From assembly GCF_050920415.1 (NCBI RefSeq), contig NZ_CP169309.1: DNA of 64,000 nt. The stretch is one strand, 5' to 3'. Below, one piece after another: positions 3,065-59,940 of this stretch. Made by a program: the position numbers and the translations under genes. This DNA comes from Escherichia coli (lineage in GTDB: Bacteria; Pseudomonadota; Gammaproteobacteria; Enterobacterales; Enterobacteriaceae). Positions within the stretch are counted from its first letter, which is position 1. Each line of letters begins with the position of its first letter. Below the pieces are notes generated by a model, which was not told the DNA's origin, ran no database searches, and saw nothing but the letters and a program-made list of their open reading frames with translations.

Positions 3065-3899
3065 GATTATCCCCTTCTCCTGCGTTGACGGGCCAGGCAG
3101 TCGTCTGGCTCTGTTTTTACAGGGCTGCAATCTGCGCTGCAAAAACTGTCACAATCCGTGGACGATGGGGCGCTGTAATGATTGCGGTAAGTGCGTGCCA
3201 CAGTGTCCGCATCAGGCGTTGCAGATTATTAACAGCAAAGTAGTGTGGAACGCAGCCGTCTGCGAGCAGTGTGATACCTGTCTGAAGATGTGTCCGCAAC
3301 ATGCCACGCCGATGGCGCAATCCATGAGCGTGGATGAGGTGCTTAGACATATCCGCAAAGCGGTGCTGTTTATCGAAGGGATAACGGTAAGCGGCGGCGA
3401 AGCCACGACCCAGCTGCCGTTTGTGGTGGCGCTGTTTACTGCCATCAAAAACGATCCGCAACTGTGCCATCTCACCTGTCTGGTGGACAGTAACGGCATG
3501 TTGAGCGAAACCGGCTGGGAAAAATTACTCCCAGTGTGCGACGGCGCGATGCTCGACCTCAAAGCGTGGGGTGGCGCGTGCCATCAACAGCTAACCGGAC
3601 GCGATAATCAGCAGATCAAGCGCAGCATTAGTCTGCTTGCCGAGCGCGGCAAACTGGCAGAACTGCGTTTGCTGGTAATCCCAGGCCACGTGGATTATTT
3701 GCAGCATATCGATGAGCTGGCGGCGTTTATCAAGGGTCTTGGCGATGTTCCGGTACGCCTGAACGCGTTTCATGCTCACGGCGTGTATGGCGAGGCGCAA
3801 AGCTGGGCGAGCGCCACGCCGGAAGACGTTGAGCAATTGGCTGATGCGTTACGGGAGCACGGGGTGAGCCGATTAATATTTCCGGCGCTGTATTTGTGA
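3036..3899 (+). CDS. yjjW: Glycyl-radical enzyme activating protein (radical SAM, 287 aa)
   Basis: Cys-rich N-terminus [27 protein letters not shown] and ferredoxin-like CxxC clusters; follows yjjI. Confidence 0.8.
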
Positions 3900-4130
3900 C
3901 ATGGCGGATGCAGCCTACGGTTCGGCACAGACCTGTAGGCATGATAAGACGCGTCAGCGTCGCATCAGGCATTGTGCGTCGACTGCCGGATGCGGTGTGA
4001 CGCCTTATCCGGCTTACGGTTCGGCACAGACTTGTAGGCATGATAAGACGCGTCAGCGTCGCATCAGGCATTGTGCGTCGACTGCCGGATGCGGTGTGAA
4101 CGCCTTATCCGGCTTACGAAGGGCAGACTA
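3900..4130. repeat. Tandem REP/BIME array, two ~96 bp units
   Basis: Near-identical units at about 3925-4020 and 4021-4115, each carrying GCCGGATGCGGTGTGA(A)CGCCTTATCCGGC. Confidence 0.8.
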
Positions 4131-45532: not shown

Positions 45533-46353
45533 AATCCCCCCCTGAATCCTGCCGGGATCTGGCTGTAGTCCACGTTGTCGTAACTGGCTTTGAAGTACGG
45601 GTCCTCGCGTCTGGCTGCAGATACCGCAGGAACTTCCCAGGATTCTTCGAAATGACGATCCGGACCAAAGAACGTGACAGCCTGTTTCACAAATTGTGTG
45701 CCGCTGTTACCCATCGCAGATACCCAGCCCGCGTAGCGTTTCACACCTTCCAGCATGGTTTCGGGGTTTACTCCCTCATTCAAACGGGCTTTCCAGGCTT
45801 TGAAGGCTGCAGATTTTGAATTGCCACCAGCACGTTTGGGATATGCCAGCCATGCCTGCTCAAACTCCGGAGAGTATTCCGGTCGGTTTGAACGAACTCG
45901 CACGGACTCATCAACTGATGCACCAACAGCTATTGGTTCATTGACTGGTTCTTTGACTGGTTCAAAAGAGTGACTGGTTCTGGGTGAATCTCCTGCACTA
46001 CCCCCTGGTGCAACTCCTGCACTACCTGGTGAATTTGCTGCACCAGATAGTGAATTATTTGCACTACCCCCTAGTGAATCTCCTGCACCATCCAGATGAA
46101 GGAGATAGATATTACTTGAGTTACCTTTTTCACCTTTCCGGGTGACTTTTTTTACCAGCCCGGACTCACAAAGGGCCGCAATATGATTCATCACAGAACG
46201 TTTGCTAATCTCGCACTGGTCAGCAATATGCTGGTAGCTGGGCCAGCACTCACCCTGATCGCTGGCATTATCAGCCAGCTTGATCAGAACCAGTTTTCGC
46301 AATGGATTACCCACTCGAATTTTCATCGCTTTAACCATCAGCTCCATACTCAT
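45529..46353 (-). CDS. Putative replication initiation protein (O-like), containing the iteron-type repeats
   Basis: N-terminal HTH (LADNASDQGECWPSYQHIADQCEISKRSVMNHIAALCESGLV), central low-complexity region encoded by DNA repeats; position downstream of cro/cII. Confidence 0.55.
   Translation of the reverse strand: MSMELMVKAMKIRVGNPLRKLVLIKLADNASDQGECWPSYQHIADQCEISKRSVMNHIAALCESGLVKKVTRKGEKGNSSNIYLLHLDGAGDSLGGSANNSLSGAANSPGSAGVAPGGSAGDSPRTSHSFEPVKEPVNEPIAVGASVDESVRVRSNRPEYSPEFEQAWLAYPKRAGGNSKSAAFKAWKARLNEGVNPETMLEGVKRYAGWVSAMGNSGTQFVKQAVTFFGPDRHFEESWEVPAVSAARREDPYFKASYDNVDYSQIPAGFRGGL
45986..46090. repeat. Candidate origin iterons, four ~20-25 bp imperfect direct repeats
   Basis: TCCTGCACTACCCCCTGGTG / TCCTGCACTACCTGGTG / TGCTGCACCAGATAGTG / TTGCACTACCCCCTAGTG inside the initiator gene, as in lambda O. 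Confidence 0.55.
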
Positions 46354-46574
46354 GCTGCACCTCCGAGATGCTTCATGTTTTTTCCGGAGCGAAAGGCTAT
46401 AAGCGGCATACTGACGCGGTAATTACGGCCCAGCGGTTCACAAATCACCTTCTGACATTCACGGTCAACCAGGCTAACACGTAGAACATGCCCTGCAGGC
46501 GTGGTGTACCACTGACCCGGTCGAGGACAACGGAAAGTCTGATTGGTAAACCGTTTGAAAATATTCCGGATCAT
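46350..46574 (-). CDS. Hypothetical protein (74 aa)
   Basis: ORF only. Confidence 0.3.
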   Translation of the reverse strand: MIRNIFKRFTNQTFRCPRPGQWYTTPAGHVLRVSLVDRECQKVICEPLGRNYRVSMPLIAFRSGKNMKHLGGAA

Positions 46575-47722
46575 TTGCGCCCCCTTACCTCGGAAGAGTT
46601 CAGCGACGAATGAATAAGACGGGCAAGAAATGCCGCATCGTTAATTCGGTCATACAGACTTACAGCCAGCGGTGATTCAGCTTTTTCCAGCATGGGATAA
46701 AGCTGCTGCAACCAGACCTGATGAATTGATGAAATGTAGGAATAGAGTACGCTGGCGTTATGTGCAACGTCGCTCGGTACAGCGGGCTTTGAAAGCTGTT
46801 TCTCCATCTGGTTAAAGGCATTGATGTATGCCTCTTTGAACTGGGCAGCACGTTTACCCGTGAAACCCATAGCAAGAAACGCAAAACCGTCGCGGGTTAT
46901 TTGATAGCAAGGTAGTTTGCGGCCTGTGCAATCGGTGTAATCACTCACCGAAAAATTGCGGGCAGTGAATGATGCGGAGCATTCAAGCGTGCGGATCTTT
47001 TTCAGTACATCGTCATGACGTTTGGAGAAGAAGTTGGCAACAGCCAGGGATGAAGTAACAGCCTGACCATCAACGATGGCAATTTCAGGTTGAGTGAGGG
47101 TTGGGATCGTAGCCATGATGGCAGCCTCTTTGGTGATTTTTAATAACTCACCACCAAGGCTTTCCACGACCTTATTGGTGGTGAGACGTACAGGGGTGGA
47201 AATACCGGTCACCAAAGAACCCGGCCCAACCGAAGTTGGCCCTGCACGCCCCACCATAATTTGGGCGTAATGCTGCTCATGACACAAAAAAACCGCAAGA
47301 GCGCGGTTGTGCGCTTTGGTGAATTCCGGGTTTCCACGCCCGGCACCCGCTTTATAAGGTGCCTGAACAGTGTAACGTCCCGGAATGGCAGAATCAATGT
47401 GCTGGTGGTCCTTCACACTCAACAAAATCACGCCTGAATTTCCACAAAGGGCTAAAGCACTCATGCGGGTAGTCTTTGCGAAGATAGATAACGCGCTGTG
47501 TTTCTGGCTCCCAACGAATAACATGAACATAAAGTCCTCTTCCGTCACGAAACCAGCGGTTAAGTTCCTGCACAACTCGCCCCCCACAGTCAGGTAAAGT
47601 TCTCTGTGGTTACTTACAGCCAGGAGATTTGGTAATCTGCATTCATGCCGTAACAACAGGTGTTCAGCGACGCTGACCACCAGCTGTTGCGACAAATGGT
47701 TATTTGCCGTTAAACTGTTCAT
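46571..47722 (-). CDS. Rha-family phage regulatory protein with an uninterrupted ~200 aa upstream in-frame extension
   Basis: Rha-like domain starts at MATIPTLTQPEIAIVDGQAVTSSLAVANFF (about 47116); the 5' 202 codons have no stop and no recognised family. Confidence 0.5.
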   Translation of the reverse strand: MNSLTANNHLSQQLVVSVAEHLLLRHECRLPNLLAVSNHRELYLTVGGELCRNLTAGFVTEEDFMFMLFVGSQKHSALSIFAKTTRMSALALCGNSGVILLSVKDHQHIDSAIPGRYTVQAPYKAGAGRGNPEFTKAHNRALAVFLCHEQHYAQIMVGRAGPTSVGPGSLVTGISTPVRLTTNKVVESLGGELLKITKEAAIMATIPTLTQPEIAIVDGQAVTSSLAVANFFSKRHDDVLKKIRTLECSASFTARNFSVSDYTDCTGRKLPCYQITRDGFAFLAMGFTGKRAAQFKEAYINAFNQMEKQLSKPAVPSDVAHNASVLYSYISSIHQVWLQQLYPMLEKAESPLAVSLYDRINDAAFLARLIHSSLNSSEVRGRK

Positions 47723-48282
47723 GCGTTAGTTTCTCCACAGACACAAAACGCCACGACGCCCGGAGCTGCACACTCGCGGGCGTCACTCTTTTCTGGAGCG
47801 CAAAAGATTTTGTAGACCAGTGCTGCATGCTCCTGGAGCTTCGAAATTGACAGATACAACTCATCATTAATTGCTGTCTGCTCGTGTGGCTCCACTACCC
47901 CATCTTCGATTGCCGAACGAATCTGCTTTGAGTAACTCCCGATCTGTTCGATGACTTCCAGCAGGCGCTGGTTTATATCGGCGTTCTCTACTTCCTCAAT
48001 TTCAGGAAGCGATACAAACACCCCACCAGCAGACTGTGCGACAGCATCCGCAATGTAGTGAGTGCCAGCCGCGCGCTGTAAAATCATTGCCCATCCCAGC
48101 GGGAAAATCTGATCGCCATCTGCACGAAGGCGGTTGAATAAAGCGTTCTCTGTTACATCCAGCCACTCAGCAGCTTCAGCGTAACCCCCCGGCAACGCCG
48201 CGATAGTTTTTCTGACAGCTTTCACGTACCACTCAGGCTGTTTTTCTACTTTCCAGTGATGCTTACCCACGGTTAGCCTCAT
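47719..48282 (-). CDS. Putative CII-like early regulatory protein
   Basis: 187 aa immediately downstream of cro; assignment by position and weak recollection of the family. Confidence 0.35.
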   Translation of the reverse strand: MRLTVGKHHWKVEKQPEWYVKAVRKTIAALPGGYAEAAEWLDVTENALFNRLRADGDQIFPLGWAMILQRAAGTHYIADAVAQSAGGVFVSLPEIEEVENADINQRLLEVIEQIGSYSKQIRSAIEDGVVEPHEQTAINDELYLSISKLQEHAALVYKIFCAPEKSDARECAAPGVVAFCVCGETNA

Positions 48283-48313
48283 CGTTCTGTGGTTAAAAAT
48301 TAAAGGTGTTCTG

Positions 48314-48514
48314 TTAATCTTTCGGATAGATATCCGGTCTTAAGTCAGATTTCGTAATTGCACCTGACGTGCATTGCTCAAGTTTTTTAGCCAGCACAAA
48401 ACTGGCTTTTTTATAACCATTGAAAACCAGCCGTAAGTAGCCTGGTGTTGAGCCAACTTTTCCGGCCAACTCGCCCTGCTGTTCTTTGGTTAAAGAGTCC
48501 CAATACGCTTTCAT
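48314..48514 (-). CDS. cro: Cro-like repressor (66 aa)
   Basis: MKAYWDSLTKEQQGELAGKVGSTPGYLRLVFNGYKKASFVLAKKLEQCTSGAITKSDLRPDIY; divergent from cI. Confidence 0.7.
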   Translation of the reverse strand: MKAYWDSLTKEQQGELAGKVGSTPGYLRLVFNGYKKASFVLAKKLEQCTSGAITKSDLRPDIYPKD

Positions 48515-48604
48515 ACAATATGTACCTCTTATATACATATTACATGATTGAAATGAACCTTCAAGATACTTGTACCCTATCGGTACAAAGGTTTTAATTT
48601 CGTT
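48515..48604. promoter_or_regulatory. Immunity-region operator/promoter interval (OR, pR/pRM)
   Basis: Divergent cI/cro spacer containing the palindrome TTGTACCCTATCGGTACAA (48570-48588). Confidence 0.6.
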
Positions 48605-49279
48605 ATGAAAACAGTCCATGACATCCGGCGGTCTAACGCCAGAAAACTGAGAGATGGTGTTGGCGGGAATTCTTCCTTTGCCACCATGATTGATCGCGAA
48701 CCAACCCAGACCAGCAGGTTTATGGGAGATGGTGCTACTAAAAATATCGGTGACAGCATGGCACGGCACATCGAAAAATGTTTCGACCTGCCTGTCGGAT
48801 GGCTTGATCAAGAACACCAGACAACGAACATCACAAAAAAACCTGATGTTTCAATCACTAATAAACAAATAACGTTAGTCCCTGTCATATCATGGGTACA
48901 GGCCGGAGCATGGAAAGAAGTTGGCTATTCTGAGGTTGATTTGAGCACAACAGAAACATATCCCTGCCCTGTACCCTGTGGCGAAATGACTTATATATTG
49001 AGGGTGATTGGTGATTCAATGATTGATGAGTACCGTCCGGGGGACATGATTTTTGTCGATCCAGAAGTACCAGCCTGCCACGGCGATGACGTTATTGCAT
49101 TGATGCACGATACAGGTGAAACCACCTTCAAAAGGTTGATAGAAGACGGGACACAGCGTTATCTCAAAGCATTAAACCCCAACTGGCCTGAGCCTTACAT
49201 TAAGATAAACGGTAATTGCTCTATCATTGGTACAGTTATTTTCTCAGGAAAACCAAGAAGATACAAAATTAAAGCCTGA
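48605..49279 (+). CDS. cI: CI-type repressor with N-terminal HTH and C-terminal S24 (LexA-like) autopeptidase domain
   Basis: 224 aa; C-terminal ...YILRVIGDSMIDEYRPGDMIFVDPEV...KRLIEDG... typical of S24 peptidases. Confidence 0.8.
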   Translation: MKTVHDIRRSNARKLRDGVGGNSSFATMIDREPTQTSRFMGDGATKNIGDSMARHIEKCFDLPVGWLDQEHQTTNITKKPDVSITNKQITLVPVISWVQAGAWKEVGYSEVDLSTTETYPCPVPCGEMTYILRVIGDSMIDEYRPGDMIFVDPEVPACHGDDVIALMHDTGETTFKRLIEDGTQRYLKALNPNWPEPYIKINGNCSIIGTVIFSGKPRRYKIKA

Positions 49280-59319: not shown

Positions 59320-59500
<181 letters not shown>

Positions 59501-59617: not shown

Positions 59618-59704
59618 GCGAAGGTGGCGGAATTGGTAGACGCGCTAGCTTCAGGTGTTAGTGTCCTTACGGACGTGGGGGTTCAAGTCCCCCCCCTCGC
59701 ACCA
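59618..59704 (+). tRNA. leuQ: tRNA-Leu (anticodon CAG), 87 nt
   Basis: GCGAAGGTGGCGGAATTGGTAGACGCGCTAGCTTCAGGTGTTAGTGTCCTTACGGACGTGGGGGTTCAAGTCCCCCCCCTCGCACCA; which of leuQ/P/V each copy is depends on orientation. Confidence 0.9.
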
Positions 59705-59732
59705 AAAACCACGTTGATATTGCTCGCACTGG

Positions 59733-59819
59733 GCGAAGGTGGCGGAATTGGTAGACGCGCTAGCTTCAGGTGTTAGTGTTCTTACGGACGTGGGGGTTCA
59801 AGTCCCCCCCCTCGCACCA
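59733..59819 (+). tRNA. leuP: tRNA-Leu (anticodon CAG), 87 nt, one variable-arm substitution
   Basis: Same sequence with GTGTTC instead of GTGTCC. Confidence 0.9.
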
Positions 59820-59853
59820 AACGAGGCGATATCAAAAAAAGTAAGATGACTGT

Positions 59854-59940
59854 GCGAAGGTGGCGGAATTGGTAGACGCGCTAGCTTCAGGTGTTAGTGT
59901 CCTTACGGACGTGGGGGTTCAAGTCCCCCCCCTCGCACCA
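59854..59940 (+). tRNA. leuV: tRNA-Leu (anticodon CAG), 87 nt
   Basis: Third tandem copy, identical to the first. Confidence 0.9.

Follow-up and report, generated by a model that had tools for sequence, protein, structure and literature searches.

A probable P4-type anti-immunity cassette nested in a 383-codon Rha-family frame of an Escherichia coli prophage

Nested genes over immunity RNAs have been described in satellite P4, where eta and kil lie over seqA, CI, and seqC (Forti et al. 1999, J Bacteriol 181:5225, as summarised in PMC10111431). The same summary cites Forti 1999 for eta nonsense mutations that lead to premature termination and notes, for satellites, CI and seqA RNAs coinciding with "Bro-network" genes. 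In the isrK-orf45-anrP region of Gifsy-1 (PMC4825925), orf45 overlies a processed RNA of about 80 nucleotides (nt), STnc1160, and its translation feeds anrP. For the Shiga toxin (Stx) phages, Ash is treated as a protein domain of unknown function in the work covering the Eru6/7/9 replication-region types (PMC8951638). The present analysis concerns a 383-codon open reading frame (ORF) on the minus strand of Escherichia coli contig NZ_CP169309.1 (assembly GCF_050920415.1), contained in a 64,000-nt stretch hereafter called the window; its record is WP_001087304.1, annotated as "Rha family phage regulatory protein". The locus is likely an anti-immunity cassette of the immI/P4 type, combining a C4-controlled Rha antirepressor of 181 amino acids (aa) with a long frame kept open for ribosomes arriving from upstream. 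The coordinates of its elements are listed in Table 1.

RNA elements, the nested Rha start, and the open frame

Two RNA genes, an IsrK/seqA-like small RNA (sRNA) and a C4/CI-type antisense RNA, were found by the Rfam scan on the same strand as the long frame and inside its "Ash domain". These elements exceeded the Rfam gathering thresholds (GA) in the window and in every relative tested. The C4 RNA carries the a' loop CUUUGGUGA in its second hairpin and a single-stranded b' box, UUUCCAC. In the window, the a' loop is complementary both to the a1 box of the IsrK-like RNA and to the a2 box, and the b' box pairs with GTGGAAA at b1 and b2. The a2 box overlaps the Shine-Dalgarno GAGG (47128-47125) of the nested AUG at codon 203. 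The match of a' and b' to four boxes, together with the position of a2 at the Shine-Dalgarno, identifies codon 203 as the predicted regulated start. Such an arrangement of loops and targets is the defining logic of P1/P7 c4 and P4 CI immunity.

For the comparison of these elements, 12 cassettes were taken: the window, seven allelic forms from IMG/VR loci, ST64B, three cassettes of one prophage locus (L054a, L054b, and L054c), and P4. Over the C4 fold, 99.1% of the cells were paired and compensatory changes occurred at 12 of the 27 pairs; none of 500 shuffles reached the observed level, and slid controls were about 40% paired. Among the 12 cassettes, the a' loop occurs in nine versions and the b' box in four, and each version co-varies with its own a1, a2, b1, and b2, and the loop/target complementarity extends over 7-12 bp in every cassette. 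The distance from the a2 end to the AUG is 8-10 nt in 11 cassettes and 3 nt, by automatic match, in the remaining one (L011). For ST64B, a non-coding RNA, STnc1310, has been mentioned near the repressor in transcriptome work, but it could not be placed relative to the cassette.

The site at 47369..47397 is predicted to be a promoter, analogous to PLE of P4 and to PisrK. Its predicted -35 hexamer overlaps the stop codon of the DUF4222 gene, and its +1 is the first base of the isrK model. As read from the aligned sequences, TAnAnT at -12..-7 with TTGnnn 17-18 nt upstream is present in the window, L054b, L054c, and P4, the -35/-10 pairs being TTGCGC/TATATT in L054b, TTGATT/TATATT in L054c, and TTGCCT/TATAGT in P4. 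A strict sigma-70 scan of 46900-48700 returned no promoter, not even at the expected PR/PRM region, and is thus uninformative.

A preliminary description of this DNA had placed the beginning of the Rha unit at about codon 203, and this is borne out. The ATG at 47116..47114 (Met of "MATIPTL") has its own Shine-Dalgarno, AAAGAGG, and the standalone Rha profiles TIGR02681 (103 bits) and phrog_518 begin at about residues 200-214. Pfam Phage_pRha (PF09669) matches residues 223-308 with 106 bits (threshold 29.9; E 1.3e-30). The ratio of non-synonymous to synonymous polymorphism (pN/pS), calculated for the window and ST64B as a pair of about 82% identity, is 0.26 over codons 204-383, which corresponds to ordinary purifying selection. 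The 181-aa Rha would be the C4-controlled effector, probably an antirepressor or regulator.

In variants with another effector, a recombination junction lies at the nested start. The 278-aa ORFs of L006, L009, L010, L014, and other loci keep the leader, DUF4222, the IsrK-like RNA, and C4, and the Rha is replaced exactly at the nested ATG by an unrelated, helical-looking product of 76 aa (MATVPALTRLNDEDLHKL...). P4 has Kil at the same nested-start position. Because the effector is swapped exactly at the nested ATG in the 278-aa variants, the RNA cassette appears to be a portable regulator with exchangeable effectors.

The claim that the frame is open for 202 codons before the Rha unit, with an ATG of its own, was likewise confirmed: codons 1-202 contain no stop, and the other two frames contain 13 and 9. 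The probability of this openness is about 5e-5 by base composition, and 5 of 20000 dinucleotide-preserving shuffles (2.5e-4) were open; given these shuffles and the stops in the other frames, the long open frame is therefore not a product of chance. Its ATG at 47722 overlaps the upstream ymfL stop as ATGA and is preceded by GGAG 10 nt upstream. Across 29 distinct cassettes, the frame in phase with the nested AUG had no stops over at least 94 codons upstream in all 29 (minimum 133), and the other two frames had on average 2.0 and 5.2 stops. All distances from the IsrK +1 to the AUG (240, 243, 246, or 327 nt) are divisible by three. A 1-nt deletion within the C4 RNA of L054a is offset by a 2-nt deletion downstream, giving the frameshifted peptide "GFS-PLYVSPPIAV" that is present in several database proteins, and the ORF of L054b remains open with its C4 RNA read in another frame. 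The open frame persists over at least nine deeply diverged alleles. The conserved property thus appears to be openness and phase, not the peptide. The L054 locus itself (IMGVR_UViG_648276647_000019; 459-2243 and 2736-2924) represents one prophage with three IsrK/C4 cassettes of three specificities; two of them stand in tandem within a single stop-free ORF of 594 aa, and the third is ATGA-coupled to the 74-aa gene.

By reference to P1, P4, and Gifsy-1, transcripts from the internal promoter would be terminated to yield the short IsrK-like sRNA and, after read-through and processing, would yield C4. The latter would mask the ribosome-binding site of Rha, keeping the antirepressor off, and would probably also provoke termination. 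Following P4 eta, the long frame would be stop-free and in phase so that ribosomes from upstream, whether coupled by the ymfL ATGA overlap or re-initiating near GTG 47416 once past DUF4222, could translate through the terminator, C4, and the target region. Such read-through, which fits the ATGA-chained operon, would by the P4 model let PR-type transcripts evade both terminator and C4 and extend to Rha and the replication genes. Selection would then act on the process of translating, not on the peptide. A wider proposal, which in our judgement stands on even ground, extends this to a large class of prophages, lambdoid and Stx: about 200 codons of stop-free "spacer" frame would be kept purely for translation, with ribosomes from the cII-like gene crossing DUF4222, the promoter, the sRNA terminator, and C4, and early-operon transcripts would thereby be blind to RNA immunity and get as far as the antirepressor and the replication genes; Ash would be the shadow of the RNAs; and the co-varying C4/target alleles, at least nine in number, would mark out anti-immunity types that are mutually specific among the prophages sharing an E. 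coli host.

Table 1. Features of the long frame and its neighbors in the window.
Feature	Position	Strand	Details
Long frame	46571..47722	-	One stop-free ORF, 383 codons/383 aa, ATG start; eta-like long ORF
Leader, codons 1-49, at ymfM position	47576..47722	-	Coupled to ymfL stop; weak amino-acid constraint
DUF4222 small gene, 59 aa	47394..47573	-	GTG start; different frame, inside codons 50-110 of long frame
Promoter-like site (predicted)	47369..47397	-	-35 TTGATT 47397-47392, 17 nt, -10 TACACT 47374-47369, N6, +1 47362
IsrK/seqA-like sRNA	47286..47362	-	Rfam RF01394, 67 bits (GA 50), E 2e-13
b1 box GTGGAAA	47337-47331	-	Within IsrK-like sRNA
a1 box TCACCAAAG	47322-47314	-	Within IsrK-like sRNA
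Intrinsic terminator	47308-47286	-	AACCGCGC-UCUU-GCGGUU-U7; 3' end of IsrK-like sRNA
C4/CI-type antisense RNA	47174..47261	-	Rfam RF01695, 83.6 bits (GA 45), E 4e-16
C4 target boxes	47125..47167	-	b2 GTGGAAA 47167-47161; a2 TCACCAAAGAG 47136-47126
Nested in-frame Rha-family gene, M203-K383, 181 aa	46571..47116	-	Pfam, TIGR02681, pN/pS
ymfL (cII/CP76-like), upstream gene	47719..48282	-	Its TGA overlaps long-frame ATG
74-aa gene, downstream (phrog_1153, weakly DUF4222-like)	46350..46574	-	ATGA-coupled to Rha stop and replication gene

Selection on the overlapping frames and competing explanations

The 59-aa ORF matches Pfam DUF4222 (PF13973) with 51 bits (threshold 27; E 9.5e-14) and phrog_1343 over its full length (1e-36). 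Across the overlap, pN/pS between the window and ST64B is 0.12 in the DUF4222 frame and 3.1 in the long frame. Between the window and e14, which are 60% identical here, the DUF4222 frame shows pS 0.88 and pN 0.28 (pN/pS 0.31), and the long frame shows pS 0.26 and pN 0.43 (pN/pS about 2). Within the overlap, it is on the DUF4222 frame that purifying selection acts. Polymorphisms among loci L006-L085, which were chosen by DUF4222 similarity, comprise 13 synonymous and 2 non-synonymous changes in the DUF4222 frame; the unbiased pairwise tests against e14 and ST64B were relied on over these counts. DUF4222 was found in 111 phage records, mostly immediately 5' of the replication gene. An identification of DUF4222 with the Icd cell-division inhibitor of P1/P7 was discarded, as no similarity was detected by BLASTP or Pfam.

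The extension upstream of Rha had been called a stretch of unknown nature and possibly a novel N-terminal domain. The first does not apply, since Pfam Phage_ASH (PF10554) already covers residues 117-213 with 57 bits (threshold 26). The second fails as well: residues 117-213 are the translation of the IsrK-like sRNA and the C4 RNA, with which the Ash profile coincides both in the window and in P4, and residues 50-110 overlap the DUF4222 gene. In the RNA region (codons 111-203), pN/pS of the long frame is 1.5 and the nucleotide identity is 90%, above that of Rha. The amino-acid conservation expected of a folded Ash domain was not found (pN/pS 1.5, frameshifts, and C4 read in another frame). AlphaFold 2 applied to the full ORF gave predicted local distance difference test (pLDDT) values of 21-35 for residues 1-210 and 53-73 for the Rha core, from a shallow alignment of 24 close sequences. 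Because of the pN/pS in the long frame and the low pLDDT, residues 50-202 are taken as not conserved as protein, and the Pfam Ash match is the translation of the two RNAs, not a protein domain.

The start codon of the leader overlaps the stop of the cII/YmfL-like gene in seven of seven diverse phages (the window, ST64B, e14, a Klebsiella phage, Eeyore, Pantoea AH07, and Yersinia YeP2), and the ensuing ORF has at least 53 codons. Given this overlap, the treatment of codons 1-102 as pure mis-annotation was dropped. The leader ORFs of the seven phages form two weakly conserved families with pN/pS of 0.4-0.9, and in the cassette-free relatives e14, Eeyore, and the Klebsiella phage the ORF stops near the DUF4222 end. 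The eta-like ORFs of L054c and P4 start about 17-25 codons before the IsrK +1 and are coupled to the upstream gene; the window codon matching that start is GTG 47416 (V103), where PHROG families 3960 and 995 begin. The starts at 47722 and 47416 may both be in use.

The corresponding e14 gene, ymfM (112 aa; L004, E. coli K-12 e14, 3323-3681), is the same ymfL-coupled frame as about 47394-47722 of the window. Its 3' half holds a conserved 59-aa DUF4222 ORF in another frame (3502-3681; TTG start, AAGGAG Shine-Dalgarno, Pfam 8.6e-19), and purifying selection in this overlap also acts on the DUF4222 frame. The N-terminal half of YmfM appears weakly conserved as protein in e14, Klebsiella, and Pantoea. 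A conserved YmfM domain in the window was rejected, as the similarity to e14 YmfM (32% with gaps) mainly reflects the common DUF4222 overlap. YmfM of e14 has been reported as an SOS-inducible cell-division inhibitor (ymfM preprint); the text of the preprint has no mention of "frameshift", "start codon", or "stop codon", and no such controls were seen in it. The e14 cell-division phenotype could come from either product, YmfM or DUF4222.

Several points weigh against the reading of the locus as a C4-controlled Rha cassette with a frame kept open for translation. The timm terminator of P4 is Rho-dependent, and ribosomes are not known to overcome an intrinsic terminator inside an ORF in the system at hand. 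The promoter-like site of the window is a positional consensus (8 of 12 matches) that the strict sigma-70 scan did not pick up. The leader is ambiguous: its pN/pS (window and ST64B) is 0.37 when read in the long frame, against 0.43 in another, and its polymorphisms number 11 synonymous to 18 non-synonymous. There are three candidate translation starts of the long frame, at 47722, near 47416, and at 47257. The low AlphaFold 2 confidence is weak evidence, as the alignment behind it is shallow, and the openness could be partly inherited, as all cassettes are homologous.

The alternative that best withstands the data, which we nevertheless hold unlikely, is an annotation artefact: only the 181-aa Rha (from M203) and DUF4222 would be made, and the upstream frame would be untranslated, its openness resulting from RNA constraint and shared ancestry. 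It agrees with the strong Shine-Dalgarno of the nested start, itself the target of C4, with the intrinsic terminator inside the frame, with the lack of amino-acid constraint over codons 51-202, and with the Prokaryotic Genome Annotation Pipeline (PGAP), which sometimes calls DUF4222 and a shorter Rha on 99.5% identical DNA. However, none of the 29 cassettes has a stop in this frame, against 2-5 stops in the other frames, and the openness of the long frame itself has a chance level of 2.5e-4; the length changes are always multiples of three with compensated frameshifts, and the frame is open even where C4 is read in another frame. The start/stop overlap in seven of seven diverse phages and the premature termination cited for P4 eta nonsense mutations (Forti 1999, as cited in PMC10111431) also speak against an untranslated frame.

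A genuine 383-aa multidomain protein, in which residues 1-200 (YmfM-like and Ash) are functional domains fused to Rha, is very improbable. The Pfam Ash match lies above the cut-off, gene callers and PHROG 821/995 take the long ORF as one protein, the ORF is kept in hundreds of genomes, and a cell-division phenotype has been reported for the e14 YmfM ORF, which is located at this position. Against this, the long frame has a pN/pS of 1.5-3.1 over codons 51-202, and the constraint resides in the DUF4222 frame; frameshifted segments are tolerated, the RNA structures with their co-varying target boxes explain the nucleotide conservation, and pLDDT is 21-35. Recent decay, in which the leader ORF, an Ash gene, and rha (two or three genes) were fused in this prophage by stop loss, can be dismissed almost entirely: although the leader ORF stops near the DUF4222 end in the cassette-free e14, Eeyore, and Klebsiella phages and Gifsy-1 orf45 is closed by a stop ahead of anrP, the frame is just as continuous in the functional phages mEp460, ST64B, cdtI, SfV, and Stx phages and in P4, and it persists over the diverged alleles.

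The preliminary description had proposed either a novel fusion or two genes joined by loss of a stop codon, and had named as refuting evidence relatives that share one long ORF of characterised architecture. Hundreds of relatives do keep this long ORF, at 382-387 aa and with Ash+Rha as named domains, which removes the reading as a novel fusion, and the retention of the continuous frame in these hundreds of relatives speaks against accidental stop loss. The idea of a fusion stands insofar as several translation units are joined without a stop between them; it does not stand as a novel domain or as an accidental loss.

If the locus is a C4-controlled Rha cassette, the consequences extend to thousands of prophage genes in E. 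coli, Shigella, and Salmonella whose 383-aa products are recorded as "Rha family", "peptidase", or "Ash" proteins. Their annotation would be corrected to a true effector of 181 aa, with the DUF4222 gene and the two RNAs missing from the records. Moreover, the extreme allelic diversity of the Ash "domain" would be explained as immunity-specificity variation, and an RNA-controlled antirepressor would be placed in the induction circuitry of Stx-type prophages. The locus would also be a clear natural example of selection for an open frame, or for translation, rather than for a protein product.

Genomic setting and relatives

The long frame belongs to a prophage resembling e14, SfV, mEp460, and ST64B, in which it occupies the immunity and early-right region. 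The genes there follow one another as ymfK (LexA-like repressor), ymfT (cro-like), ymfL (cII/CP76-like), the long ORF, the 74-aa ORF, a replication gene, a PerC-like gene, and further genes. Successive genes are chained by ATGA overlaps, including ymfL/long ORF and long ORF/74-aa gene. Identical or near-identical DNA is present in hundreds of E. coli genomes and in the phages mEp460, cdtI, ST64B, and many Stx phages; the long ORF of the relatives is annotated as a 382-387-aa Rha protein, an antirepressor, or a "peptidase". In a 100% identical genome PGAP called the 383-aa ORF, and in a 99.5% identical genome it called DUF4222 and a shorter Rha. Among the E. coli RefSeq genomes, L001 and L005 differ in the same way, PGAP giving either the 383-aa Rha or DUF4222 with a 297-aa Rha from M87; the IsrK-like and C4 RNAs are absent from the annotation of the stretch examined in both records.

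The similarity of the 74-aa gene product (phrog_1153) to DUF4222 is weak (E 0.008). The RNA/Rha cassette is bordered on both sides by DUF4222-like small genes, and cassette-free phages have a single DUF4222 gene directly upstream of the replication gene and overlapping it. The presence of two flanking DUF4222-like genes here versus the single one in cassette-free phages suggests that the RNA/Rha cassette is an inserted module.

Elsewhere in the window, the gene of a phage N-6-adenine methyltransferase (44127-45077, minus strand) is apparently frameshifted, its ORF continuing into unrelated sequence, and PGAP sets the "frameshifted" flag in an identical genome. Other Rfam matches were located at 3938-4114, 37260-37458, 38293-38542, 59396-59478, and 59618-59937. 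They include, on the minus strand, the STnc100 sRNA and two tRNAs of the prophage late region; on the plus strand at 59.6-59.9 kb, three tandem 84-nt tRNAs possibly adjoining the prophage end; and naRNA4/REP-type elements.

Comparison with known systems

The C4-family RNAs with a1/b1 and a2/b2 targets are shared with P1/P7 immI (c4-icd-ant) and with N15 (cA RNA-gp31-antirepressor). In these systems, a C4-family RNA is processed from the transcript that it regulates and controls an antirepressor; the processing is expected here by analogy. P1/P7 differ in having a separate icd between c4 and ant, whereas no ORF lies between C4 and the effector here, and in an Ant with a KilAC/ANT domain in place of Rha. 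The IsrK-type terminator element was not detected by Rfam in the sequence examined. Gene 32 of N15 (L089, 2600-2890), annotated as "transcriptional repressor" (cA), matches Pfam Phage_ASH and overlaps a stretch resembling the RNA cassette of the window; it may be another protein annotation over an immunity RNA.

The "Rha/Ash domain" proteins of Stx phages belong to the same family, and occupy the same position beside the repressor and replication genes; Stx phages are among the closest DNA relatives. Where PMC8951638 has Ash as a protein domain, it coincides here with the IsrK-like and C4 RNAs.

The series in Gifsy-1, as known from PMC4825925 only, is again an IsrK sRNA that has a Rho-independent terminator, then a processed RNA of about 80 nt, then an antirepressor-like gene. 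From its position and size, we infer that STnc1160 is C4-like. The first AUG of orf45 lies about 107 nt from the IsrK +1, and its counterpart here is the AUG at 47257-47255 (codon 156), within the C4 RNA. In contrast to the window, in which 47 codons continue in frame into Rha, orf45 has its own stop and anrP is re-initiated; as far as PMC4825925 describes, orf45 is also not part of a longer frame coupled to the upstream gene.

The likeness to P4 eta/kil extends through the whole cassette. The P4 eta ORF (L087, 8168-8812, minus strand) has a start adjoining the stop of the upstream gene and contains the isrK/seqA and C4/CI Rfam matches; Pfam Ash lies over exactly this RNA stretch, and the nested start for the 65-aa Kil reads "EAAIMAT". 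In both loci, a long ORF is coupled to the upstream gene and contains an internal promoter (predicted here), a seqA/IsrK-like element, and then a CI/C4 RNA with a/b target boxes on both sides. No stop interrupts the frame from seqA through CI and seqC into the effector, whose in-frame internal start shares the AAAGAGG-N8-ATG context, the "EAAIMAT" peptide, and a Shine-Dalgarno covered by the downstream target; Pfam Ash covers the RNA region in both. P4 differs in its effector (65-aa Kil versus the 181-aa Rha) and in its setting, a satellite in place of the early-right operon of a lambdoid prophage. The window frame has about 100 extra upstream codons overlapping the DUF4222 gene, its sRNA-C4 linker is 24 nt versus 107 nt in P4, and its internal terminator is intrinsic. 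The locus belongs to the C4/CI anti-immunity systems with P4 eta/kil architecture, a design already known from P4; what sets it apart from the P4 type is the Rha effector, the lambdoid early operon, and the extra upstream DUF4222 overlap.

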